This document shows, one piece after another, positions 3,587 through 38,730 of a DNA stretch of 64,000 nt. Numbering within the stretch: position 1 is the stretch's first letter; the number at the start of each line of letters is the position of its first letter. The notes beneath the pieces are model-generated. The model saw only the letters and a list, made by a program, of their open reading frames with translations, searched no databases and was not told where the DNA came from. The translations under genes and the position numbers were made by a program. The stretch is taken from NCBI GenBank assembly GCA_040754095.1, contig JBFMFO010000003.1, positions 57,401 through 121,400 of the forward strand. Direction: 5' to 3'. This DNA is from Thermodesulfobacteriota bacterium. Lineage in GTDB: Bacteria; Desulfobacterota; QYQD01.

Positions 3587-4765
3587 TCAAGCCGACGGCT
3601 GATGGCCGGCAGCTTCTGTAAAAGGCAGGTAAACGGTAAAGGTTGAACCTGCTCCCGGCGCGCTTTCAAACTCTATGAAACCCCCCATCAGCTCAACAAA
3701 TTTTTTAGATATGGCAAGCCCGAGGCCTGAGCCTTGTTCTCCGCCTTCTTTCCTGGTTATTTTAGGAAACGGGGTAAATATCTTATCGCTGTCTCCCGGC
3801 TTTATGCCCTGACCGGTATCGGTTATGGCTATGGCCACCAAATCCCCCCTTATCCCCCCTTTAGTAAAGGGGGGTGAGGGGGGATTTGGGTCTTGTTGCA
3901 GCCGGCAATTTACGCTGATTTGTCCGCCCGCCTGGCTAAACTTTATGGCATTATCAAGGAGGTTTCGCAGAATAGTCTGCAGGCCTCTTTTATCTGCGGT
4001 GATACGGTCTGATTCCGGCGGCGTTTCCCGCCGGAAGGAGATACGCTTATTGTAGGCCATATTTTGCAGATCCATCCAGACCGTATCGATCAGGCCGGTT
4101 AGAGAGAGGGGTTCCGGACGGGGCGTAACACCCCCGGTCTCCAGCCTGGCTAGGAGCGAGATGTCATTAACCAGGGTCAGCAGTTGTCGCCCGTTCCGGT
4201 CGATCACGGAGAGAAATTCGCGCTGGTTGCTGTTTAACGGCCCGTAGTATTCATTGGCCAGCAGCTCAGCAAAACCGAGGATGCCGTTAAGGGGGCTGCG
4301 CAGTTCGTGGGAAGTTTTTGAAAGAAAGGCAAACTTTTGCTGCTCTGCCCGTTGCAACTCATGGCCGGCCCGACGCAACTCGTCATACAGCGACTTTATG
4401 CGCAACATAACCTTGACCCGGGTTGCCAAAATCAGGTTGTCAACCGGTTGCACTATATAATCGTCGGCCCCCATGTCCATGCCCTTTATCTTGGACTTTA
4501 AGTCGTCATAAGTGGCAGTCAGGAATACGATGGGGATATGCCTCATCTCAGGATCGCCCTTGAGTATCCGGCAGACCTCGAATCCATCCATAATCGGCAT
4601 CTGGATATCAAGGAGCACCACATCCGGGTGTTTTTCGCGGGCCAGCCGCACGGCCTCCAGGCCGTCCCCGGCGGGAATTATTGCACAGTCAATATTAGCG
4701 CGTAATATCTCACTCACCATAAAGCGGACATTGGGATTATCATCGGCGAGCAGTATGGCGTACAT
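3587..4765 (-). CDS. Hybrid response regulator-histidine kinase (N-terminal REC, HisKA, HATPase_c)
   Basis: REC domain (ILLADDNP ... VVLLDIQMPIMDGFEV). H-box SHELRSPLNGILGFAELL, N-box LLDNAIKFS, G1 DTGQGI, G2 GSGLGLAI. A 54-nt palindromic insertion lies between the N and G1 boxes. Confidence 0.85.
   Translation of the reverse strand: MYAILLADDNPNVRFMVSEILRANIDCAIIPAGDGLEAVRLAREKHPDVVLLDIQMPIMDGFEVCRILKGDPEMRHIPIVFLTATYDDLKSKIKGMDMGADDYIVQPVDNLILATRVKVMLRIKSLYDELRRAGHELQRAEQQKFAFLSKTSHELRSPLNGILGFAELLANEYYGPLNSNQREFLSVIDRNGRQLLTLVNDISLLARLETGGVTPRPEPLSLTGLIDTVWMDLQNMAYNKRISFRRETPPESDRITADKRGLQTILRNLLDNAIKFSQAGGQISVNCRLQQDPNPPSPPFTKGGIRGDLVAIAITDTGQGIKPGDSDKIFTPFPKITRKEGGEQGSGLGLAISKKFVELMGGFIEFESAPGAGSTFTVYLPFTEAAGHQPSA
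3838..3892. repeat. G5/C5-run palindromic element inserted in-frame in the HK gene
   Basis: The sequence aaatcccccttatcccccctttagtaaaggggggtgaggggggatttgg is a near-perfect hairpin. It encodes DPNPPSPPFTKGGIRGDL within the kinase ATP-lid region. Intergenic copies lie at 5868-5935, 6121-6210 and 6287-6336. Confidence 0.75.
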
Positions 4766-5735: not shown

Positions 5736-5749
5736 ACGGCACTATAAAT

Positions 5750-5830
5750 CCGAATATCGAAATCCGAAACAAATCCGAAATCAAAATGCTCAAATGACCA
5801 AAACATAATTGTTTGTAACACGTTAGCTGT
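5750..5830. repeat. Solo terminal inverted repeat of the ~300 bp MITE family (aatccgaaa...caaatgaccaaaa)
   Basis: Matches the reverse complement of the 3' terminus of the MITE copies at 16790-17125 and 18750-19085. Confidence 0.6.
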
Positions 5831-5867: not shown

Positions 5868-5935
5868 AAATCCCCCTTAATCCCCCTTTTTCAAAGGGGG
5901 AATGTAGGGGGCCCCCCCTGTCAGCGGTAATCTGA
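5868..5935. repeat. G5/C5-run palindromic element (cccccttaatccccctttttcaaagggggaatgtagggggcccccc)
   Basis: Hairpin-forming. An inverted partner copy lies at 6121-6210, with flanking ctgtcagcggt / accgctgacag. Confidence 0.7.
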
Positions 5936-6253: not shown

Positions 6254-6336
6254 TGTAGGGTGGGCAAAGCCCACCCTACGGGACTTAAATCCCCCTCACC
6301 CCCCCTTTGGAAAAGGGGGGGTGAGGGGGATTTGGC
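6254..6336. repeat. GTAGGGTGGGCAAAGCCCACCCTAC palindrome followed by a G5/C5 palindrome (aaatccccctcaccccccctttggaaaagggggggtgagggggattt)
   Basis: Both are perfect inverted repeats read directly from the sequence. Confidence 0.8.
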
Positions 6337-6626: not shown

Positions 6627-8624
6627 ATGAACCTGTTTAAACGAGAAGAAAACAAGGCAAAGGATTATGAGAGTGAGTTACAGGAGGCCCGGGCGCAGGC
6701 CAGGCGCTGTGAAAGTATCTTATCTGCTATAGCCGCACCCATGTTTGTGACCGATAAAGACCTGGTGATTACCTCTATAAATGACGCCGCGCTGAAGGCC
6801 ATGGGCTACAGTCGGGATGAGGTAGTGGGGAAGATGACCTGTGCCCAGTTTTCCAAGACCCCGCTCTGCGGCACGGCCCAGTGCACGATTAAGAACTGCA
6901 TGCGCACCGGCGACGTAATCAACGGTGAGACGGTGGCCGAGACCAGGGACGGAAGGAAGGTGCCCATCCAGGCGGCCTGTTCGGCCCTCTTTGACGAGCA
7001 GGGAAAGCCCTACGGCGGCATGGAGGTCATCCTAGACCGGACCGAGGCAGTCAAGGCCAAGTGGGAGGTAGATAATATCCTCAAATCCGCCGCCGCGCCC
7101 ATGTTTGTGACCGATAAAGACCTGGTGATCACCTCCATCAATGATGTGGCGTTAAAGGCCATGGGCTACAGTCGGGATGAGGTGGTGGGGAAGATGACCT
7201 GCGCCCAGTTTGCCAGGACTCCCCTCTGCGGCACGGCCCAGTGCACGATAAAGAACTGCATGCGCACCGGCGACGTAATCAACGGTGAGACGGTGGCCGA
7301 GACCAGGGACGGCAGAAAGGTGCCCATCCAGGCGGCCTGTTCGGCCCTCTTTGACGAGCAGGGAAAGCCCTACGGCGGCATGGAGGTCATCATAGACATA
7401 ACAGAGGTCAAACGCCTCCAGAAAGAGGCCGATGAACAACGTGAATACCTGGAAAGACAGGTGGCCATGCTGGTAAAAGAATTACATACCCTGAGCCTCG
7501 GAGACCTGTCGGTAAACATTGTCGCGGAAAGACAGGATGAGATCGCCAGGGTCATAGAAAGTTTAAATAAGGTTATTGAAAGTCTCCGGGAGACCGCCCG
7601 GGTAGCGGAAGCTGTTGCCCGGGGAGACCTGACCGTAGAAATCACACTCAAGTCAGAAAAGGATGTCCTTGGAAATGCCTTTAAGAAAATGATTAACGAC
7701 TTGCGGAATATCGTCGGCAATATAAAAGAGGCGTCCGACAATGTGGCCTCCGGCAGTCAGCAAACCAGCAGTACGGCCGCGCAACTCTCACAGGGTTCTA
7801 CCGAACAGGCGTCCAGTATTGAAGAGGTGTCCAGCTCCATGGAGGAGATGAACAGTACGGTAAATCAGAATGCCGACAATGCCAGGCAGACCACCTCCAT
7901 TGCCGAGAAGGCCGCCGGCAATGCCCAGGAAAGCGGCAAGGCCGTGGCGGAGGCGGTAGGGGCCATGAAACAGATCGCGGAAAAAATATCCATCATTGAA
8001 GAAATCGCCCGCCAGACCAATCTGTTAGCCTTAAATGCGGCCATCGAGGCGGCCCGGGCCGGGGAACATGGGCGGGGGTTTGCGGTGGTGGCGGCCGAGG
8101 TGCGCAAGCTGGCCGAGCGCAGCCAGACCGCAGCCCAGGAGATCGCCAATCTATCGGGGAGCAGTGTTCAGGTGGCCGAACATGCCGGCGCTCTGGTGGC
8201 CGAACTGGTTCCCAATATCCAGAAGACCGCCGAGCTGGTTCAGGAGATAAATGCCTCCAGCACCGAGCAGGCCAGCGGTATCCGGCAGGTGACTCAGTCT
8301 ATTCAACAGCTCGACCAGGTGGTGCAGCAGAATGCCAGCGCTGCCGAAGAGATGTCCGCAACCGCCGAGGAACTTACGTCCCAGGCCGAGCGGCTGCGCG
8401 AGTCCGTTAATTTCTTCAAGCTGGATGACCAGGGTGGTCAGGGGATGAAACAATCGGGAGCCGGGCGTAGTCCCCGTGCCGACATCCCTAAACTGTCTGC
8501 CCACAAACCGGCGCGCCCCGGCGCATCTGCGAGCGGCAGTGTGACTAAGCCGCAGATAACAACCGGGGTTGATATAGTCCTGGGTAAGAATGATATGGAC
8601 GACCGGGAGTTTGAAAGAATTTAA
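6627..8624 (+). CDS. Cytoplasmic methyl-accepting chemotaxis protein with two tandem Cys-rich PAS-like modules, HAMP and MCP signalling domain
   Basis: Strong RBS AGAGGAGG. No TM segments. Two 120-aa repeats each carry [23 protein letters not shown]. The MCP tip motif is [37 protein letters not shown]. The C-terminal tail ends REFERI. Confidence 0.9.
6727..7410 (+). repeat. Tandem direct duplication (two 360-bp copies, about 95% nucleotide identity) inside the MCP gene
   Basis: 6727-7050 versus 7087-7410. The 3' halves are almost base-for-base identical. Confidence 0.85.
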
Positions 8625-10689: not shown

Positions 10690-10850
10690 ATAGCTGTCAG
10701 CTATCAGCAGTCAGCGGTCAGCATGAAGTCGGTCCACCGTTCACTGTTGACCGTTTACCGAAAGAAAATGTCGGACAACGGTTAACGGATAACAGATAAC
10801 AAACATGCTGATAGCTGAACGCTGATAGCTAAAATGGGGAGGGATCAACA
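10690..10850. repeat. Mosaic intergenic repeat, reverse-complement copy of 19840-19990
   Basis: ctgtcagctatcagcagtcagcggtcagcatg ... ccgtttaccgaaagaaaatgtcggacaacggttaacggataac ... gctgatagctgaacgctgatagc. Near-identical inverted copy at 19840-19990. Related copy at 38560-38680. Confidence 0.75.
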
Positions 10851-11188
10851 TGGCTTGCATGCTTAGCGACGTTGACGGAAAGCCGGTGTTAAAGCTGACG
10901 GGTGCAGTCGGTATCGCCGAAGGCGCGGAATTAAAAGGGGCCCTGCTGAGGCTTATTGAATCTACAGAAAATCCTACGGTAGCCATGGATGGAGTTACAG
11001 AGGTCGATGTCTGCACTTTGCAACTTCTATTTGCAACTCAAAAGAGCGCCGCCAAAGCCGGTAAGTCGCTTAATTTGGCGGACATCCCCGAGCCGTTTAA
11101 TCAGGCAGCAGAATTGGCAGGAATGGCTGACCTCTTTGGGCTTAAAATTCGAAATCCGAAGCACGAAATTCGAGACAATACCAAATGA
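10850..11188 (+). CDS. STAS-domain protein (anti-sigma-factor-antagonist-like) in the che cluster
   Basis: RBS GGGGAGGG. Reads KLTGAVGIAEGAELKGALLRL ... VDVCTLQLLFATQKSAAKAGKSL, a STAS/SpoIIAA-like fold signature. The 3' end and stop codon lie inside a MITE terminal repeat, so the C-terminus is uncertain. Confidence 0.65.
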   Translation: MACMLSDVDGKPVLKLTGAVGIAEGAELKGALLRLIESTENPTVAMDGVTEVDVCTLQLLFATQKSAAKAGKSLNLADIPEPFNQAAELAGMADLFGLKIRNPKHEIRDNTK

Positions 11189-11420
11189 CCAAAATTCTAA
11201 GCAATTATGAGGCTCTTGCAAAAGTCGTCACTCCGGTGAAAACCGGAGTCCAGATGGTTTGCAACTGTTTGAAAAGACTGGATTCCGGCTTTCGCCGGAA
11301 TGACAACAATTCGATCGTAAGAGTTTTGCAATAGCCACTTATGTTTTGGTCATTTGAGCATTTTGATTTCGGATTTGTTTCGGATTTGGGATTTCGAATT
11401 TCGGATTTAAACGTGGCGCT
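11130..11420. repeat. Diverged copy of the ~300 bp MITE (TIRs cgaaattcgagacaataccaaatgaccaaaat / ttttggtcatttgagcattttgatttcggatttgtttcggattt)
   Basis: Same termini and same internal hairpin (ccggctttcgccggaatgac) as the copies at 16790-17125 and 18750-19085. Confidence 0.65.
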
Positions 11421-11496
11421 CGGTAATCTCAGTTCGGCGCATAAGTGCTAACGGTGTTTTGGCAGTGGATTTAGGTAAAAACTGGGGGGGTAATTT

Positions 11497-11862
11497 ATGG
11501 CTAAGACAATTATGACCGCCGACGATTCAGCCAGCGTCCGGCAGATGGTAAGTTTCACCCTTAAACAGGCCGGTTACGAGGTCATCGAAGCGGCGGACGG
11601 TAAAGATGCCCTGACCAAGTTGAACGGCACGCAGATAGACATGCTGATTACCGACCTCAATATGCCCAACCTGGATGGGATCAGCCTGATCAAGGGTGTG
11701 CGCGGGATGCCTAACCATAAGTTCATCCCGATCATTATGCTGACTACAGAGTCTCAGGAGAGCAAGAAGGCTGAAGGCAGAACAGCCGGGGCCTCCGGAT
11801 GGATCGTTAAGCCGTTTAAGCCGGATCAGCTCCTGGCGGTGGTTAAAAAAGTATTAAGATAA
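11497..11862 (+). CDS. cheY: Chemotaxis response regulator CheY
   Basis: 121-aa single REC domain (ADDSASVR ... DMLITDLNMPNLDGISLI ... KPF). Confidence 0.9.
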   Translation: MAKTIMTADDSASVRQMVSFTLKQAGYEVIEAADGKDALTKLNGTQIDMLITDLNMPNLDGISLIKGVRGMPNHKFIPIIMLTTESQESKKAEGRTAGASGWIVKPFKPDQLLAVVKKVLR

Positions 11863-11922
11863 GCGGGTAAAATCAAAGCTCAAAGTTCAAAGGCCAAATG
11901 AATGACAAATGTCAAAGCTCAA

Positions 11923-12066
11923 ATGACAAATGAAATTCAAAGTTCAAATGAGCAAAAGCTCTATGATCTTGAGGAGCGAACAGCCCAGTTTGGAGAAAAT
12001 GTCATTGATTTCGTCAAAACACTGCCACAGGACTCGATTAACAGGGAATTGTGCGGGTATAAGTAG
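11923..12066 (+). pseudogene. Truncated N-terminal fragment of a four-helix-bundle (23S rRNA IVS-type) protein gene
   Basis: Reads MTNEIQSSNEQKLYDLEERTAQFGENVIDFVKTLPQDSINRELCGYK*. The YDLEERT.QFGE.VI.F.K.LP motif is recognised from memory of that family. The fragment stops at the hairpin preceding the GIY-YIG gene. Confidence 0.35.
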
Positions 12067-12095
12067 TCCGTCATTCCCGCGAAAGCGGGAATCCA
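12066..12095. repeat. REP-like hairpin GTCATTCCCGCGAAAGCGGGAATCCAG (5' flank of GIY-YIG gene)
   Basis: Perfect 9-bp stem. Almost the same hairpin (gtcattccggcgaaagccggaatccag) sits inside the MITE copies at 16907-16933, 18875-18901 and 19705-19731. Confidence 0.75.
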
Positions 12096-12107
12096 GAAAA
12101 AAGAAGC

Positions 12108-12425
12108 ATGAAAAACTTCTTCGTTTATATCCTTTGCAGTAAACGGAATGGCACTTTGTATACCGGCGTGACGTCGAACTTAATCAAACGGGTATATGAA
12201 CATAAGAGTGATTTAGTTGATGGGTTTACAAAGAAATATAATGTCCACTGTCTGGTTTGGTATGAAATGCATGAGACAGCTGAGGCAGCTATTACCAGAG
12301 AGAAACAAATAAAGAAATGGAATCGCAAGTGGAAACTAAAACTTATCGAGGAGTATAACCCTGAATGGGATGATTTATATAAAGCTCTTTGTGAAGAGAC
12401 TGGATTCCCGTTTTCACGGGAATGA
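12108..12425 (+). CDS. GIY-YIG nuclease superfamily protein (small UPF0213/YhbQ-like)
   Basis: 105 aa. Reads FFVYILCSKRNGTLYTGVTSNLIKRVYEH ... with a conserved downstream E (YEMHETAEAAITREKQIKKWNRKWK). The final codons and the stop lie inside a second hairpin. Confidence 0.75.
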   Translation: MKNFFVYILCSKRNGTLYTGVTSNLIKRVYEHKSDLVDGFTKKYNVHCLVWYEMHETAEAAITREKQIKKWNRKWKLKLIEEYNPEWDDLYKALCEETGFPFSRE

Positions 12426-12428
12426 CGA
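12400..12428. repeat. REP-like hairpin CTGGATTCCCGTTTTCACGGGAATGAC (3' flank of GIY-YIG gene)
   Basis: Reverse complement of the 5' flank hairpin motif. Confidence 0.7.
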
Positions 12429-12511
12429 CTTGTTACGAACCCATCAACTTTGGATTTTGACATTTGAACTTATGAAGGCGGGATGGCATGAGGTTACCCG
12501 AAATATGAGCT

Positions 12512-14638
12512 ATGGAGGTATTAGCCGTGAACCCCGAAGATAAACACGCCCAGACCTATTTGGAAGAAGCCAGGGAGCTGCTGGCCGAACTGGAAGAGGC
12601 CGTGCTTGAGTTGGAAAACAACATGTCCGACATGGAGCTTGTGAACCGTATTTTTCGAGCCATGCATACAATTAAAGGTTCCGGGGCCATGTTCGGTTTT
12701 GACGCCGTGGCCGGGTTTACCCACCACGTGGAGACCGTCCTGGATCAGGCGCGAAACGGCGTCATCCCGGTTACGAATGACCTCACCGGCCTGATTCTGG
12801 CGGCGCGGGATGAGATCTCATCCATGCTGTTCGGCGCATCTGAGGCGGATTCGGGCGGCCGTGAGGAAATTATCGCCGCATTGCGTTCGCTTTTACCCGG
12901 AGAGGCAAATGAGGGAGAGGCGACAGGCCCAGAGACGAACGAGGCAGTCCCTGATTCGGGGGCCGAAGTTCAACCGGAAAGCAGCAGGGGCATGAGAGCT
13001 ACATACCGTATCCGTTTTATTCCTGGAAGCGATACGCTTCGCTATGGGAACGACCCTATCGCCTTGCTTAACGAACTGGACAACCTCGGAGAGCTGCGGG
13101 TCACCGCTCTTTCCGATCGCATCCCCTGCCTGGAAGAAATCAATTATGATGATTGTTATCTCGGATGGGACGTGACTCTTATATCTGAGGCCGATATCAA
13201 CGCGATCCGCGATGTCTTTATATTTGTGGAAGACAGCAGTGAGGTGACCATTGAAAAGATAGCAAATGCGAATACGATTGGCGATGCGGCAACTGAAAAG
13301 ATTGGTCAGATACTGGTTGCTCGTGGAGATGTCCCTGCCGAAGCGGTGGAAAGGGCCGCAAAGGATCAAAAAAAGATCGGGGAGATACTGGTCGAGACCG
13401 GTACGGTGTCTAAGGAAAAGGTTAATTCAGCCCTGGTCGAACAGCATATTATCCGGCAGCAGGCGGAAAAGCATAGCGCCAGCAGCATCCGCGTGGCCGC
13501 CGAAAAGCTTGACCAGCTCATTAATATAGTGGGTGAGTTGGTCACTACGCAGGCCCAACTCACTCAAGCGGCCGGTTCTAACGGGAACTCGGAACTGCTG
13601 ACGGCTGTAGAGAGTGTCGAGCGTCTTACCGGCGAACTGCGCGATTGTGTCCTGGGAGTGCGTATGCTGCCCATTGGCTCCACTTTTGCCAAGTTTAAAA
13701 GATTGGTGCGCGACCTTTCCGTGGCGCTGGGCAAGGAAGTTGATTTTATCACAGAGGGAGACGAGACAGAACTCGATAAAACGGTTATCGAGAAGATCGG
13801 CGATCCCCTGGTTCATCTTATCCGGAATAGCTTAGACCACGGTATTGAGACCCCGGAGAAAAGAGAGGCCACCGGCAAGCCGCGTCGCGGCATAATTCGT
13901 TTGACGGCGGCGCACGCCGGAGGAGAGGTGGTTATATCGGTTGAGGACGACGGCAAGGGGCTTGATACGGAGGCCATCGTCCGTAAGGCCATGGAAAAAG
14001 GGCTGATCGATGACGCGAAGAGCCTCTCCGATTCCCAGATATTTAATCTCATTTTCCAGCCGGGGTTTTCCACCGCTGAAACGGTCACAGATGTCTCAGG
14101 CCGCGGGGTAGGCATGGACGTGGTAAGACGGGAGATAGAGGCCCTGCGGGGTTCGTTTGATATTCAGAGTAAAAAGGGGCGAGGCACCACGGTTACGGTC
14201 AGACTGCCCCTGACCCTGGCCATAATCGACGGCCTCCTGGTGGAGTCAGGCCGGGAGCGGTTTGTGATTCCGCTGCATCATGTGCAGGAGTGTGTGGAAT
14301 TGACCGGGCGTGATATTGATAATACCCACGGACGCCATGTGATGAATGTCCGGGACAGGCTTGTTCCTTATGTCCGCTTAAGTGAATTCTTTGTTACGGC
14401 GGATAGAGAAGCGCTATCTATAGAACAGGTCATCGTGGTGCAGGCCGAGGATTTCGTTACAGGCCTGGTTGTGGACAGGATTGTGGGTGAGAAGCAGGCG
14501 GTGATTAAACCTCTGGGCAAGATGTTCAGGCAAGCCGACGGCGTATCCGGGGCTACTATACTGGGTGACGGCACGGTGGCCTTGATTTTGGACGTACCCC
14601 AGATCACACGGTGCGCACAGCGTGAGGAGGCGGCATGA
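12512..14638 (+). CDS. cheA: Chemotaxis histidine kinase CheA
   Basis: HPt motif RAMHTIKGSGAMFGF. HATPase motifs (HLIRNSLDHGIE, VEDDGKGLD, GRGVGMDVV). C-terminal CheW-like domain. The start may instead be the GTG at 12527 (RBS GGAGG). Confidence 0.9.
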   Translation: MEVLAVNPEDKHAQTYLEEARELLAELEEAVLELENNMSDMELVNRIFRAMHTIKGSGAMFGFDAVAGFTHHVETVLDQARNGVIPVTNDLTGLILAARDEISSMLFGASEADSGGREEIIAALRSLLPGEANEGEATGPETNEAVPDSGAEVQPESSRGMRATYRIRFIPGSDTLRYGNDPIALLNELDNLGELRVTALSDRIPCLEEINYDDCYLGWDVTLISEADINAIRDVFIFVEDSSEVTIEKIANANTIGDAATEKIGQILVARGDVPAEAVERAAKDQKKIGEILVETGTVSKEKVNSALVEQHIIRQQAEKHSASSIRVAAEKLDQLINIVGELVTTQAQLTQAAGSNGNSELLTAVESVERLTGELRDCVLGVRMLPIGSTFAKFKRLVRDLSVALGKEVDFITEGDETELDKTVIEKIGDPLVHLIRNSLDHGIETPEKREATGKPRRGIIRLTAAHAGGEVVISVEDDGKGLDTEAIVRKAMEKGLIDDAKSLSDSQIFNLIFQPGFSTAETVTDVSGRGVGMDVVRREIEALRGSFDIQSKKGRGTTVTVRLPLTLAIIDGLLVESGRERFVIPLHHVQECVELTGRDIDNTHGRHVMNVRDRLVPYVRLSEFFVTADREALSIEQVIVVQAEDFVTGLVVDRIVGEKQAVIKPLGKMFRQADGVSGATILGDGTVALILDVPQITRCAQREEAA

Positions 14639-14664
14639 GTTCACCGCAGAGGACGGGAAGAAAG

Positions 14665-14775
14665 CTGAAGGCTCAAAGCTCAAAGCTCAAAGCTCAAAGC
14701 TGATGGCTGATAGCTCATAGTTCATGGCTCAAGGCTGAAGGTAATGACCAGTGACCAATGACTAATGACCGATTT
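14665..14775. repeat. Mosaic repeat with a 4x GCTCAAA microsatellite plus a gctgatggctgatagctcatag ... aatgaccagtgaccaatgactaatgacc motif
   Basis: Read directly from the sequence. Motifs are shared with many other intergenic sites. Confidence 0.6.
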
Positions 14776-14803
14776 GCGGTGAGAAATACAAGGAGGTAGA
14801 AAA

Positions 14804-16618
14804 ATGAAAGTCAGGATAGGTACAAAACTGGCCGTTGGTTTTGTCATCCCCTTGCTTTCTATGCTGATCATCGGGGGATGGGCCTATTTTGCCAATCGGG
14901 ATGTAGAATCAAGGTCGAGCTTGACAAAGGACGAGAGCATCGTCTTTCACGAGACCGCCCAGCAGATGAAGGTGGACGTTATACAGGTACAACAGTGGCT
15001 ATCGGATATCTCGGCCACGCGGGCGCAGGACGGCCTGAATGATGGTTTTGATAAGGCAGAGGAGCACAGACGATCTTTTTTGGCCGGGCTGAATAAGTTC
15101 AGGGAGATGTTCACCGAGGAAAACAACCAGGAGGGATTGGAACACCTGAAGAAATTGGAAGCAGAATTTAACGCATATCATGCCACCGGGAAAAAGATGG
15201 CCCAGGCTTACATAGAGCACGGGCCGGCCGGCGGAAACAAGCTGATGGCCGAGTTTGATGAGGCAGCAGAGGCCCTGTGGCGCAATCTCAATCCATTGGT
15301 GGAATCACAGACCAAAGAAGTGCATGAGAGTATGGAGGCCATTGTTACCTCGATCAAACGTGTCAATATGGGCGTTATCGTCATCTTGTCTTTAGCCGTT
15401 TTAATAACTGCTGTTGTAGGCATACTTATCGCTCGTCGTATTGTCAGACCAGTCAACCAGCTTCGTGACGTTGCTGATAAACTGGCGGCAGGAGATACCT
15501 CGGTAGAAATCGATATCAAGAGCCGGGATGAGACCGGCGACCTGGCCGCATCATTTAAGAAGATGGTGGCGCAACTGAACGGCCTGCTTGCCGAGATAGA
15601 CCTGCTCACCAGGTCTGCGGTGGAAGGAAAACTCGATACCCGCGGCGATACCGGGAAATTTGGCGGTGATTATGGAAAGATTATCCACGGCATAAACGAT
15701 ACCCTCGATGCTGTAACCGGCCCTCTGAAGACTTCAGCCGAATACGTCCGGCAGATCAGCAGAGGCGACCTCCCGGCAAAGCTTACAGACGACTACAAAG
15801 GCGATTTTAACGAGATCAAGAACAGCCTGAACAGCATGATCGATAATCTTACCGGTTTTGCCGTCAATGTACGGACAGTGGCCGGGCAGGTGGCTGCAGG
15901 CAGCGAGGAGCTTAATGCTGCTGCCACGCAGATGTCCCAGGGCACGTCCGAACAGGCGGCAAGCATCGAGGAGGTATCCAGTTCCATGGAGGAGATGAAT
16001 GCCGCAGTAGTGCAGAATGCGGATAACGCCAAGCAGACGGCGGTTATTGCAAAAGATGCGGCTCAAAATGCCAGGGAGAGTGGTGATGCAGTGGTGCAGG
16101 CGGTAGGGGCCATGAACCAGATCGCGGAAAAAATAACTATTATTGAAGAGATTGCCAGACAGACCAACCTCCTGGCCTTGAATGCGGCCATTGAGGCGGC
16201 CCGGGCCGGAGAGCATGGACGGGGCTTTGCGGTGGTGGCGGCAGAGGTGCGGAAGCTGGCCGAACGCAGCCAGACTGCGGCCCAGGAGATTGCCGATTTA
16301 TCGGGGAGCAGCGTCGAGGTGGCCGAAAGTGCCGGCCGTATGGTAGCTGAACTGGTTCCCAATATACAGAAGACCGCCGATCTCGTTCAGGAGATCAGCG
16401 CTTCCAGCGGAGAGCAGGCCCGGGGGATAGAACAGGTCACCCAGGCCATTGAACAGCTTAATCAGGTGGTGCAGCAGAATACCGGTAGCGCAGAGGAGGT
16501 GGCCATTCCTCCGAAGAGCTTTCCGCTCAGGCAGAACAATTGCTTAATGCGGCAGAGTTTTTCAAGACTGGCGAGGGCGCCCGGCAGACAGCGGCGCATG
16601 CCGGGATCAGGCGCGTAA
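14804..16618 (+). CDS. Transmembrane methyl-accepting chemotaxis protein (2 TM, periplasmic helical sensor, tandem HAMP, MCP domain) with an apparent frameshift at the 3' end
   Basis: RBS AAGGAGG. TM1 [18 protein letters not shown]2 [23 protein letters not shown] tip motif [37 protein letters not shown]. After about 16510 the reading frame yields nonsense ([15 protein letters not shown]), while the -1 frame continues as a normal MCP tail to the DFERF terminus at 16797. Confidence 0.8.
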
Positions 16619-16789
16619 AACGCCCAACGGCTCCTTCCTCCGCGATGCAGTTGAGTCCGGCCGCCGCACCTGTAACACAGAGACATGAGAAAAAAGTTGA
16701 TAGTTCAACCGGGGATAAGCTTGGGCAGGCAGGATCGAGAGCGGTGGATTTAATCCTGGAGCCGGATAATGATGGGCAGGATTTTGAAA

Positions 16790-17125
16790 GGTTTTGAGGC
16801 GGCTATTCACCGCAAGGGCGGACAAATTCTAAATTCGAAGCACGAAATACGAAACAAATTTAAATGACCAAAATTGATGGTCTCGTAAAAAGTCTGAAAA
16901 GACTATTTTCTGTCATTCCGGCGAAAGCCGGAATCCAGCAAATTCAATATGTTCTGGATGCCGGATCAAGTCCGGCATGACGATTTCAGGACTTTTTACG
17001 AATTCATCAAAATTCAAAATCCTAAACAATTATGTTTTGGTCATTTGGACATTTTGATTTCGGATTTGTTTCGGATTTCGATATTAGGATTTCGGATTTA
17101 TAGCTTTGCGTCTTTGCGGTGAGCC
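16790..17125. repeat. MITE-like element (~300 bp) with ~45-bp imperfect TIRs and two internal hairpins. Copy 1.
   Basis: About 97% identical to 18750-19085. TIRs cgaaatacgaaacaaatttaaatgaccaaaat / ttttggtcatttggacattttgatttcggatttgtttcggattt. Internal hairpins gtcattccggcgaaagccggaatccag and gccggatcaagtccggc. Confidence 0.8.
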
Positions 17126-17149: not shown

Positions 17150-18757
17150 ATGAAAGTATCAGTAGGACCAAAGCTTATCGGGGCGTTTGTTTTTCTTGTA
17201 ATCGCCCTGGGTGTGGTCAGCTACACCGGCATCAGGCAGATGGAGGCCATAGACGGGCATCTGATGAACATCTCGGATGTTATTATGAAGCGCGCCATCG
17301 TAGCTAAAGAACTACAACTGCATCTTGCCAATACCGGCTGGGGGGTTATGGAGTTCCTGACCGCGGAGACTACGGCCGAGCGGGATGAGTTGGCCGGCAC
17401 AATCAAGAAGGAGATGGCCGAGGTCAGCGAGCATATGGGCGAGTTGGACGGGATTGCCTCTGCCGAGGTCAAGACACATCTGGCAGAATTTCGTAATTCC
17501 TTTGGTGCGGTGGAAAAGATTATTAACCAGATATTAACCCAGGGCCGGGGCGGCATAAACAAAGAAGTCCAGATGCTCGATACCCAGTTGGATGCGGTTA
17601 TTGATAAAACCATAGCCGGGACAGAGAAGATCGTGGCCGTGGTGGACAGGGAGGTGGAGGCGGCCAAGCTGGCGTCGGATAAAGACGTGGAGTATGGCCG
17701 GAACCTGCTGATGGCAGTGGCCGGGGCAGCCCTGGTGGTGGCCGTGATTATAAACATCTTTATCATTCTCGGCATAAGAAGCTTCAGGCGGACGGCATTG
17801 AGCATAGGGGAAGCGGTAGAAAACGTGGCAGCGGGCGCGGAACAGCTTTCCGCTACGGCCCAGGGGCTTTCACAGGGGGCCACAGAACAGGCGGCGAGCA
17901 TCGAGGAGGTATCCAGCTCCATGGAGGAGATGAATGCGTCTATCTCACAGAATGCGGACAGCGCCGGCCAGACTGCGGCTATGGCTACCAAGGCGGCCGG
18001 CAACGCCAGCGAAGGCGGTCAGGCGGTGACCCAGGCGGTCGGCGCCATGAAGCAGATTGCCGAGAAGACGAGCGTAATCGAAGAGATCTCTCGCCAGACC
18101 AATTTACTGGCCCTGAATGCCGCTATCGAGGCGGCCCGGGCCGGTGAACATGGAAAGGGCTTTGCAGTGGTCGCTTCCGAGGTGAGGAAGCTGGCGGAAC
18201 GGAGCCAGATCGCGGCCCAGGAGATTGCCAACCTTTTAGGCGGCAGCCTCCAGGTGGCCGAACATGCCGGCAAGCTGGTGGAAGAGTTGGTCCCCGCTAT
18301 CCAGAAGACCTCTGAACTTGTTCAGGAGATCAATGCGGCCAGCCGGGAGCAGGCCAGCGGTATCGGCCAGGTCACCCAGGCCATCCAGCAGCTCGACCAG
18401 GTGGTGCAGGCAAACGCAGCCGCCTCTGAAGAACTGGCCTCCACCAGTGAAGAGACGTCCTCGCAGGTGGTTGAGATGCAGCGTAACGTGGATATGTTTA
18501 TCGAGCGGCTGGGAGGACGAAAGAGAGTCAATAAGAAGAACTCGGCGCGAAAAACGAACTCCGGGAACTTCATCGGCCTTACCGGCAAGCTCAAGGGAAA
18601 ACCCAGTACAGAATCGGTTAAGGACTTAACCGTCGCCTCGGTCGTAGATGCGCCGGGGCGTGCGGAAGGGGGCCAGACGGCCGCGAGGAGCCAGGATGCT
18701 GTAGGTGTTATTCTTGATCTGGATAAGCAGAACGACCAGAATTTCGAAAGATTTTGA
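17150..18757 (+). CDS. Transmembrane methyl-accepting chemotaxis protein (2 TM, ~150-aa periplasmic domain, MCP signalling domain, no clear HAMP)
   Basis: RBS AAGGAGG. TM1 [17 protein letters not shown]2 [27 protein letters not shown] tip motif [38 protein letters not shown]-terminal tail NDQNFERF. Confidence 0.9.
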
Positions 18758-19085
18758 GGCGGATATTCACCGCAAGGGCGGACAAATTCTAAATTCGAAG
18801 CACGAAATACGAAACAAATTTAAATGACCAAAATTGATGGTCTCGTAAAAAGTCTGAAAAGACTATTTTCTGTCATTCCGGCGAAAGCCGGAATCCAGCA
18901 AATTCAATATGTTCTGGATGCCGGATCAAGTCCGGCATGACGATTTCAGGACTTTTTACGAATTCATCAAAATTCAAAATTCTAAACAATTACGCCTTGG
19001 TCATTTGAGCATTATGATTTCGGATTTGTTTCGGATTTCGATATTAGGATTTCGGATTTATAGCTTTGCGTCTCTGTCGAAGATC
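18750..19085. repeat. MITE-like element, copy 2
   Basis: Near-identical to 16790-17125, including the last codons of the upstream MCP gene. Confidence 0.8.
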
Positions 19086-19135: not shown

Positions 19136-19672
19136 ATGGACGAGATCAGGCAGTACCTTACCTTTGTTTTGAACAGAGAAGATTTTGCCCTGGAGACCTC
19201 GAGGGTAAAAGAGGTGCTGGAGTACACAACCGTTACCCGGATACCGCGCATGCCGGATTTTCTCTGCGGCGTGATAAACTTAAGGGGCAACGTAGTCCCG
19301 GTTATGGATATGCGGTTAAAACTGGGGATGCCGGCGGCAGAGCGAACCGTCGATACCTGTATTGTGATTGTAGAAGTGGAGCTTGATGGGGAGACAGTCA
19401 CGATAGGATGTCTTGTGGATTCAGTCAAAGAAGTCCTGGAGATACCAGCCGGTGAGATCGAACCGGCGCCCAAGATGGGGATGCGCCTCAGGGCTGACTT
19501 TATCCAGGGCATGGCCAGGCAGAACGAAGGCTTTATTATCATTCTGGATATCAACCGCATCCTTTCCATCGATGAAATAACGCTCATGTCCGCCGCCGCC
19601 GGACCGGCGATTGAGACGGATGTAGCCGTTCAAAAGACATCTGGTGATGTCCAGGCAATGTCATTGACTTAA
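19136..19672 (+). CDS. cheW: Chemotaxis coupling protein CheW
   Basis: RBS AAGGAG. CheW-like domain (YLTFVLNREDFALETSRVKEVLE ... GVINLRGNVVPVMDMR ... IVIVEV). About 20-aa C-terminal extension. Confidence 0.9.
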   Translation: MDEIRQYLTFVLNREDFALETSRVKEVLEYTTVTRIPRMPDFLCGVINLRGNVVPVMDMRLKLGMPAAERTVDTCIVIVEVELDGETVTIGCLVDSVKEVLEIPAGEIEPAPKMGMRLRADFIQGMARQNEGFIIILDINRILSIDEITLMSAAAGPAIETDVAVQKTSGDVQAMSLT

Positions 19673-19839
19673 GGTTTCATCTGCTGATGCAGAATCAAAG
19701 GACGTCATTCCGGCGAAAGCCGGAATCCAGTCTTTTCAAGATGTTCTGGACACCGGCTTTCGCCGGTGTGACGGTGAGGATCAACCGGATTATTCTTAAG
19801 TCAACGACATTGGATGTTCAGGCGGAGATGGTGGGTTAG

Positions 19840-19990
19840 GAAGCTATCAGCACTCAGCGTTCAGCGGTCAGCATGTTTGTTATCCGTTATCCGTTAACCG
19901 TTGTCCGACATTTTTTTCGGTAAACGGTCAACAGTGAACGGTGGACCGGCTTCATACTGATAGTTGAACGCTGATAGCCGAAAATAGACA
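19840..19990. repeat. Mosaic intergenic repeat (inverted copy of 10690-10850)
   Basis: gctatcagcactcagcgttcagcggtcagcatgtttgttatccgtta ... ccgttgtccgacattttt ... ggtaaacggtcaacagtgaacggtggaccggc ... ctgatagttgaacgctgatagc. Confidence 0.75.
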
Positions 19991-38419: not shown

Positions 38420-38730
38420 ACGATGGGCAACAACCGATCATTAGTCATCGGCCATCGGTTAGTGCTCAACCGGAAATTACCGTTTCCGGCTTACGGTCGG
38501 CCTAAGGCCGGTCGTGCCACGCGCCGATTCGCCGGGGCGAGCTTCACGCTTTCAGCGGTCAGCTGTCAGCATGTTTGTTATCCGTTAACCGTTGTCCGAC
38601 ATTTTCTTTCGGTTAACGGTCAACAGTGAACGGTGGGCCGGCTTTATGCTGAAGGCTGATAGCTGAATGCTGATCGCTTTTACCAGTGACAAATGACTAT
38701 TGACTAATGACATTCACTATACTTTGTTTG
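38420..38730. repeat. Composite mosaic repeat block. The 38420-38560 portion is the reverse complement of 51780-51900, and 38560-38680 relates to 19840-19990.
   Basis: Shared strings: atcattagtcatcggccatcggttag, ccggaaattaccgtttccgg, cagcggtcagctgtcagcatgtttgttatccgttaaccgttgtccgac, accagtgacaaatgactattgactaatgac. Confidence 0.75.

Follow-up and report, generated by a model that had tools for sequence, protein, structure and literature searches.

In the window, the 64-kb stretch of DNA analysed here, two inverted hairpins enclose a small gene for a GIY-YIG nuclease in the interval that separates cheY from cheA. The question raised by this locus is whether the nuclease is tied to its flanking hairpins in a REP/RAYT-like manner, and whether the unit was inserted here. 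Both parts of this idea are supported by sequence comparison, which also indicates that the unit at 12069-12427 is a member of the Ssn/NTS system (Chenal et al., 2025, Nat Commun 16:2388; PMC11893778). Systems of this kind have been described before, and the window adds one more member. The view, expressed in the sequence-only reading of this DNA, that REP/RAYT has no established GIY-YIG counterpart is outdated, as Ssn is described in that paper. The features concerned are the following.

11227-11304, no strand: gene-less convergent hairpin pair with a 24-nt spacer (family D9, 81% over 43 nt)
11866-12503, no strand: block absent from close relatives, between cheY (ends 11862) and cheA, from syntenic contig comparison
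11902-12066, + strand: 54-codon 5' remnant of a gene for a 23S rRNA IVS / four-helix-bundle protein (E<=1e-3 to 175 relatives)
12069-12096, + strand: left NTS hairpin, CGTCATTCCCGCGAAAGCGGGAATCCAG, agreeing with the NTS consensus CGTCATTCCCGCGMAVGCGGGAATCYRG at 28/28 positions
12108-12425, + strand: ssn gene, encoding a 105-aa single-domain GIY-YIG nuclease (PF01541, E 4e-17)
12400-12427, - strand: right NTS-like (SRM) hairpin, CGTCATTCCCGTGAAAACGGGAATCCAG on the - strand, with two consensus mismatches
16912-16981, no strand: convergent pair of hairpins lacking a gene, 15-nt spacer, central in a 300-bp repeat (16777-17105)
18872-18941, no strand: convergent pair of hairpins lacking a gene, within the other copy of this repeat (18737-19065, 97% identity with that at 16777-17105)
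19704-19772, no strand: convergent pair of hairpins lacking a gene, central in a 155-bp element (19657-19811)

Ssn is a family of single-domain GIY-YIG nucleases (Chenal et al., 2025). The hairpin concerned is the 28-nt Neisseria Transformation Sequence (NTS); across many phyla, it and related hairpins termed SRM flank ssnA, a small gene of the GIY-YIG type. When purified from four species, SsnA bound the hairpin only as single-stranded DNA and cut a few nucleotides upstream of it, leaving the opposite strand uncut. The Y6A, Y17A and E64A mutants kept binding and lost cleavage, and in Neisseria structure-preserving changes to the stem abolished activity. In their Discussion, the same authors liken NTS-ssnA-NTS to an insertion sequence and draw the parallel with IS200/IS605 and REP/RAYT. 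[quoted passage not shown]

The predicted nuclease of the window matches this description closely. PF01541 spans residues 4-77 of the 105-aa ORF, and no other Pfam domain was found in a Pfam scan. The predicted protein shows 65% identity over 86 residues (E 6e-45) with a 94-aa SsnA orthologue from N. gonorrhoeae (ORF at L089 1489-1770), which was used as a stand-in for the N. meningitidis protein and has the length given for SsnA. Membership of the family is defined by a blastp E < 1e-10 to Neisseria SsnA (Chenal et al., 2025), a limit within which the window protein falls by its comparison with the gonococcal orthologue. Its Y7, Y18 and E65 align with the catalytic Y6, Y17 and E64 of the N. 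meningitidis (Nm) enzyme and are invariant across 24 relatives. The published family name for this nuclease would be Ssn, cd10448. It had been labelled "UPF0213-type" from the sequence alone, and this label is imprecise because the similarity to the UPF0213 structures PDB 1ZG2 and 1YWL is marginal (E about 1e-3); apparently these are distant kin, in one superfamily and different families. The profile search proposed with that label bears out the GIY-YIG half of it. Searches of NCBIfam, PADLOC and PHROGs assigned the nuclease to no family, and no NCBIfam model scored above its cut-off.

A further property was correctly noticed at the outset: the last codons and the stop of the gene are encoded by the 3' hairpin. 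The stop codon (12423-12425) is the TGA of GGAATGAC, and therefore the last 8 or 9 residues (TGFPFSRE) are read from the hairpin. Homologues commonly end in GFPxxRE, the result of the same read-through. This differs from the Neisseria system, in that entry of the ORF into the right hairpin yields the 105-aa form common to many Nitrospirota relatives. Shared with Neisseria are the single domain of ~95-105 aa, the catalytic residues, the presence of hairpins on both sides of the gene and, in the case of the left hairpin, identity to the NTS consensus. Other differences are that the window contains ten hairpins in 64 kb, compared with hundreds per genome, and that its host is uncultured, the nearest named CheA relatives being those of Desulfosarcina and Geobacter at about 55% identity. 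Unlike in the window, the hairpins downstream of ssnA in the gonococcus are not inverted relative to the gene. We counted 16 NTS hairpins in the 3.3 kb around gonococcal ssnA (L089, NZ_CP119140.1), and the two immediately downstream share the orientation of the gene. We also noted that PLSDB lists 2.17-Mb Neisseria gonorrhoeae chromosomes as plasmids (L089, H3).

The 27-mer GTCATTCCCGCGAAAGCGGGAATCCAG of the left hairpin (12070-12096, + strand) ends eleven bases upstream of the ssn ATG. Relative to it, the 27-mer of the right hairpin (12400-12426, - strand) has two changes, which are compensatory in the stem. The hairpins had been described as reverse complements at 12066-12095 and 12400-12428; they are present and inverted, while their positions were off by a few bases and they are not exactly identical. 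Both are predicted to fold as single-stranded DNA, and much more stably than shuffled controls: the left at -9.0 kcal/mol (z -4.7) and the right at -7.8 kcal/mol (z -3.8). Two features on which the published assays critically depended, a GTC ahead of the palindrome and a C following it, are present. With up to three mismatches, six copies of GTCATTCCCGCGAAAGCGGGAATCCAG are present in the window, compared with 0 in 100 shuffles. A general detector brings the total to ten hairpins, arranged as five convergent pairs with the layout 5'-GTCA...CCAG, spacer, CTGG...TGAC-3', all within 11.2-19.8 kb. One of the five pairs encloses ssn, of which this is the single copy within the 64-kb window; the other four are gene-less, with spacers of 15-24 nt. 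Just upstream of the left hairpin, 18 bases (GGGAATTGTGYGGGTATA, 12044-12061) are shared at 17/18 positions with a Nitrospirota locus (L001 578-595), the flank of which is otherwise unrelated to the window; this motif is absent from 160 other loci.

Hairpins flank relatives of this gene across a wide phylogenetic range. We compared the 80 best genome loci encoding Ssn relatives (58-79% identical; Nitrospirota, Thermodesulfobacteriota, Chloroflexi, Patescibacteria, Alpha-, Beta- and Gammaproteobacteria, and others) and an independent set of 80 metagenome loci. A locus was scored as having hairpins on both sides if an oriented hairpin was present at most 200 nt upstream and another at or after the 3' end of the gene. 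This was the case for 60 genome loci (17 with a hairpin on one side, 3 with none) and 64 metagenome loci (12 and 4, respectively), so that both sides are occupied in 124/160 loci and at least one in 77/80 genome and 76/80 metagenome loci. Some of the misses reflect limits of the detector; the right hairpin of L005, for example, is clear. To the question whether copies of the GIY-YIG gene always carry flanking hairpins, the answer from these counts is that they usually do. A plasmid homologue from Rhizobium tumorigenes (L090 1380-1960, 57% identical) lacks NTS-like hairpins on either side and may use a different motif or none. It occurs in all eight related plasmids, so there is no presence/absence polymorphism there.

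In 58 units from other genomes, the sequences outside the hairpins vary between loci and similarity ends at the outer hairpin edge, where the published cleavage site lies. A pyrimidine occupies position -1 at 54/58 of the left and 56/58 of the right ends, and no target duplication was seen around these 58 units. The left and right hairpins of a unit are more alike than hairpins of different units: loops are identical within 20/58 units, compared with 13% of between-unit comparisons. An exact 27-mer from the 5' end of the window ssn gene had 0 matches in metagenomes.

Syntenic contigs, found through relatives of CheA, show that the block at the cheY-cheA site was recently acquired. In L082 and L083 (CheA 95% identity, DNA about 93%), cheY and cheA are separated by 21 nt, compared with about 650 in the window, and the block is missing too from L084 (CheA 80%) and L088 (67%). 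The claim that the unit interrupts this interval by insertion is thus confirmed by empty sites in four related genomes. The sequence-only reading had conceded that a single-copy gene at a conserved syntenic position in relatives lacking the hairpins would count against its proposal; the gene is not syntenic in relatives. Over 14.7 kb of colinear sequence, neither a hairpin nor an ssn gene is present in L082, compared with ten of the former and one of the latter in the window. An exact look-up of the window CheY sequence yielded only a 1-kb contig identical to the window, which breaks at the right hairpin, and no empty site.

The inserted block consists, in order, of an AAATGAC-type low-complexity run, the 54-codon gene start, the Ssn unit and 77 nt that end in a second low-complexity run. 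Its GC content is 39.8% (39.5% for the hairpin-bounded unit), compared with 50.2% for the window. The gene start, rightly identified beforehand as a truncated four-helix-bundle gene, encodes the N-terminal ~50 residues, with its first codons supplied by the AAATGAC-type run. Alignable relatives of this fragment (e.g., P0260) run past the stop in the window, and 8/10 of the longer relatives scanned match PF05635, four of them above the gathering cut-off. We considered homing of the unit to a fixed site in IVS-protein genes and rejected it, because, among truncated relatives of the 54-aa fragment, the end falls at many positions and no hairpin-encoded tail occurs.

The four gene-less pairs are, on sequence grounds, most likely relatives of ssn units after internal deletion of the gene. 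Each includes one constant and one variable hairpin. Their spacers share the motif TCTTTCAA; its other orientation, TTGAAAGA-CTGG, is similar to the 3' end of ssn genes of the 105-aa type. In the pair at 11227-11304, 10/13 spacer bases next to the right hairpin match the 3' end of the window ssn. Whole pairs including the spacer recur at 76-82% identity in the unrelated loci L003, L005, L016, L017 and L040, and those of L005 and L040 are 79-81% alike to the 11227-11304 pair over 85-93 nt. Neighbouring hairpins in the 80 genome loci are convergent in 69 cases, compared with 36 divergent and 28 tandem (16 and 12), with a median spacer of 23 nt. At L026 882-1042, the first ~70 nt of an ssn ORF are found between two hairpins, a remnant that fits an origin of the pairs by internal deletion. 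The gene-less hairpins had been called near-identical to those beside the gene. They are of the same kind and differ in the stem, which is ATTCCGGCG in the gene-less pairs and ATTCCCGCG beside ssn. The stem ATTCCGGCG occurs in 0/137 gene-adjacent hairpins (80 loci); this count was restricted to loops of 12 nt or less because our first detector, with a loop limit of 35 nt, found 457 hits in real loci and as many as 74 in shuffled ones. This stem difference counts against dependence of the pairs on the nuclease of the window, as does the loss of activity that stem changes caused in Neisseria.

In the window, these pairs occupy the centres of larger repeats, which are of two kinds unrelated to each other. 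Those at 16912 and 18872 lie within the ~300-bp copies, as had been reported; the one at 19704, assigned to the same repeat, belongs to the separate 155-bp element. This element has 17-bp terminal inverted repeats (AATGTCATTGACTTAAG and CTTAAGTCAACGACATT) and lies between the copies of an 11-bp direct repeat (GATGTCCAGGC and GATGTTCAGGC), the target of which is single in L082. Because of these terminal repeats and the target duplication, it was probably moved by another mechanism. Its insertion (within 19646-19823) in the last cheW codons has changed the C-terminus of the protein.

Other differences and repeats were observed in the window. Relative to L082, there is an extra MCP gene encoding 604 aa (14804-16618, in the region 14651-17105), and the two 97%-identical 300-bp repeats (one in the region 14651-17105, the other at 18737-19065) bracket an orthologous MCP gene at 17150-18757. 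An arm of the 300-bp repeat is also present at 5746-5814. A 4-kb block absent from L082 (20886-24904) encodes a 986-aa hybrid histidine kinase and a 133-aa response regulator; its borders are AAATGAC-type low-complexity runs, like those around the Ssn block. Also present is a palindromic repeat of ~125 bp containing GTTAACCGTTGTCCGACATTTTTTTCGGTAAACGGTCAAC (10697-10822, 19857-19982 and 38543-38673), which occurs twice in L082 (1385-1513 and 8480-8587) and is unrelated to NTS hairpins. A C-run/G-run palindrome (AAATCCCCCC…GGGGGGTGAGGGGG) is found in three copies (3840-3882, 5868-5910 and 6286-6328). At 6732-7391, a tandem duplication of about 300 nt (360-nt period, 94% identical) lies within a gene that aligns to a PAS-containing MCP of L084.

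Taken as a whole, the locus is best explained, with high confidence on our part, as an Ssn/NTS module that arrived by foreign insertion and is accompanied by gene-less pairs that are most likely deletion relatives of such units. The module is of foreign origin and lies in a low-GC block of ~640 bp, lacking in close relatives, that also holds a broken 23S-rRNA-IVS-protein gene. By homology, the enzyme would bind the NTS hairpin only in single-stranded DNA, and it is predicted to cut the strand that reads CGTCA, to the 5' side of the hairpin and a few nucleotides away from it. Because the hairpins are convergent, there would be one cleavable site per strand, each at its own 5' edge of the unit. 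GIY-YIG enzymes hydrolyse DNA with no covalent intermediate and no rejoining; any copying would therefore need host replication or repair. Cleavage specific to single-stranded DNA is known from experiments on homologues; the window enzyme is presumably active, and it may contribute to the spread of the unit or of the pairs. The idea that the repeats are spread or maintained by the nuclease is offered only as a hypothesis. In its full form, this would make hairpin-ssn-hairpin an autonomous mobile element of an as yet undemonstrated class, with the nuclease marking its 5' edges, the host copying it, and the gene-less pairs behaving as MITE-like derivatives that preferentially insert where other palindromic repeats have a single-stranded centre. 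We regard this full form as possible and rather doubtful. Viewed by the criteria for insertion sequences and MITEs, the ends of gene-bearing and gene-less copies are of the same kind and carry a different stem variant.

The alternative that survives best, and that we place a little short of an even chance, is that the module was a passenger. It would have been carried in by a larger IVS-protein cassette with low-complexity arms, or by recombination between such arms, and the gene-less pairs would ride in transposase-mobilised elements. The block missing from L082 extends beyond the hairpins by 205 nt on the left and 77 nt on the right, and other window blocks missing from L082 are also bordered by AAATGAC-type runs; the 19704 pair is enclosed in an element that has terminal repeats and an 11-bp duplication. 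Sequence other than the hairpins bounds the single empty site that was found, and because the inserted block is larger than the hairpin-bounded unit, this site is no demonstration of the unit moving alone. However, the limit of similarity at the outer hairpin edge in the 58 units elsewhere goes against a passenger, as does the distribution of the arms of the 155-bp and 300-bp elements, which were not found in other loci although hairpin pairs are present there. It follows from these two observations that the hairpin-bounded unit travels independently elsewhere.

Another, more tentative alternative is a domesticated nuclease that restricts incoming or exposed single-stranded DNA bearing the hairpin and thereby shapes recombination around the chemotaxis genes. 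In N. meningitidis, SsnA lowers transformation by DNA in the NTS-gene-NTS configuration, and NTS repeats cluster around particular genes (Chenal et al., 2025). The ten hairpins of the window are confined to 8.6 kb of the chemotaxis locus, the gene content of which differs from that of L082. However, the absence of the module from close relatives and its low GC fit recent arrival better than a host function, although mobility is compatible with this alternative. On balance, we consider it rather improbable.

The Ssn/NTS module shares with REP/BIME-RAYT and IS200/IS605 the placement of a small nuclease gene within inverted copies of a recognised hairpin. By analogy, recognition of a single-stranded hairpin with a short oriented 5' tail would be shared as well, and the gene-less pairs dispersed between genes recall REPs and BIMEs. 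Unlike the RAYTs, Ssn is a hydrolytic GIY-YIG enzyme and not an HUH tyrosine enzyme with a covalent intermediate; unlike IS200/IS605, which cut both ends on one strand, the Ssn unit would have one cleavable site per strand. A true REP/RAYT system, with the hairpins being REPs of an HUH tyrosine transposase encoded elsewhere and the GIY-YIG gene incidental, could account for the REP-like hairpin size and the BIME-like pairs, but is highly improbable given that the gene is bracketed in most loci, that it encodes PF01541 and not Y1_Tnp, and that Ssn homologues bind and cut such hairpins in vitro (Chenal et al., 2025).

Equally improbable is a housekeeping UPF0213/YhbQ nuclease or a free-standing or intron GIY-YIG homing endonuclease with hairpins that are terminators or coincidence: the GIY-YIG domain, the weak UPF0213 similarity and a score of 17.8 bits against the group I intron endonuclease model TIGR01453 (cut-off 56) can be cited for it, and it is contradicted by the lack of synteny, by the absence of a DNA-binding domain from an ORF of only 105 aa, by Rfam introns that score below gathering in the window (none at E<=1 in 11000-12700), by a terminator scan that flagged neither gene-flanking hairpin and by recurrence of the same oriented hairpin sequence across phyla.

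The core of the hairpin resembles the Neisseria dRS3 repeat (ATTCCC-N8-GGGAAT), and the window core, ATTCCCGCGAAAGCGGGAAT, fits this pattern. The gene-less pairs of the window are comparable to NIMEs, in which repeat units are 50-150 bp, as both consist of inverted dRS3-like repeats around a spacer. They differ from NIMEs and dRS3 in that the window spacers are only 15-24 nt long and in the stem variant ATTCCGGCG. No family reached its gathering score in an Rfam scan of the window. The consensus of RF02625 (WsnRNA46, Wolbachia sRNA 46), GUCA...CCAG / CUGG...UGAC, is itself a convergent hairpin pair, and its alignment with the window pair at 11208-11323 extends over the full length. At 29.8 bits, below the gathering score of 65.3, this pair is no member of RF02625; the consensus suggests that the Wolbachia family may be an Ssn-related pair.

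In summary, because the Ssn/NTS system was published in 2025, the finding itself opens no new question. It adds to the work of Chenal et al. (2025) a comparison of filled and empty sites at 93% DNA identity, with ten hairpins compared with none; the observation that similarity between copies ends exactly at the published cleavage site; and gene-less pairs, together with at least one internally deleted ssn, that look non-autonomous. If the nuclease drives the spread of these units, they would represent a transposable element built on an enzyme that is unable to rejoin DNA.
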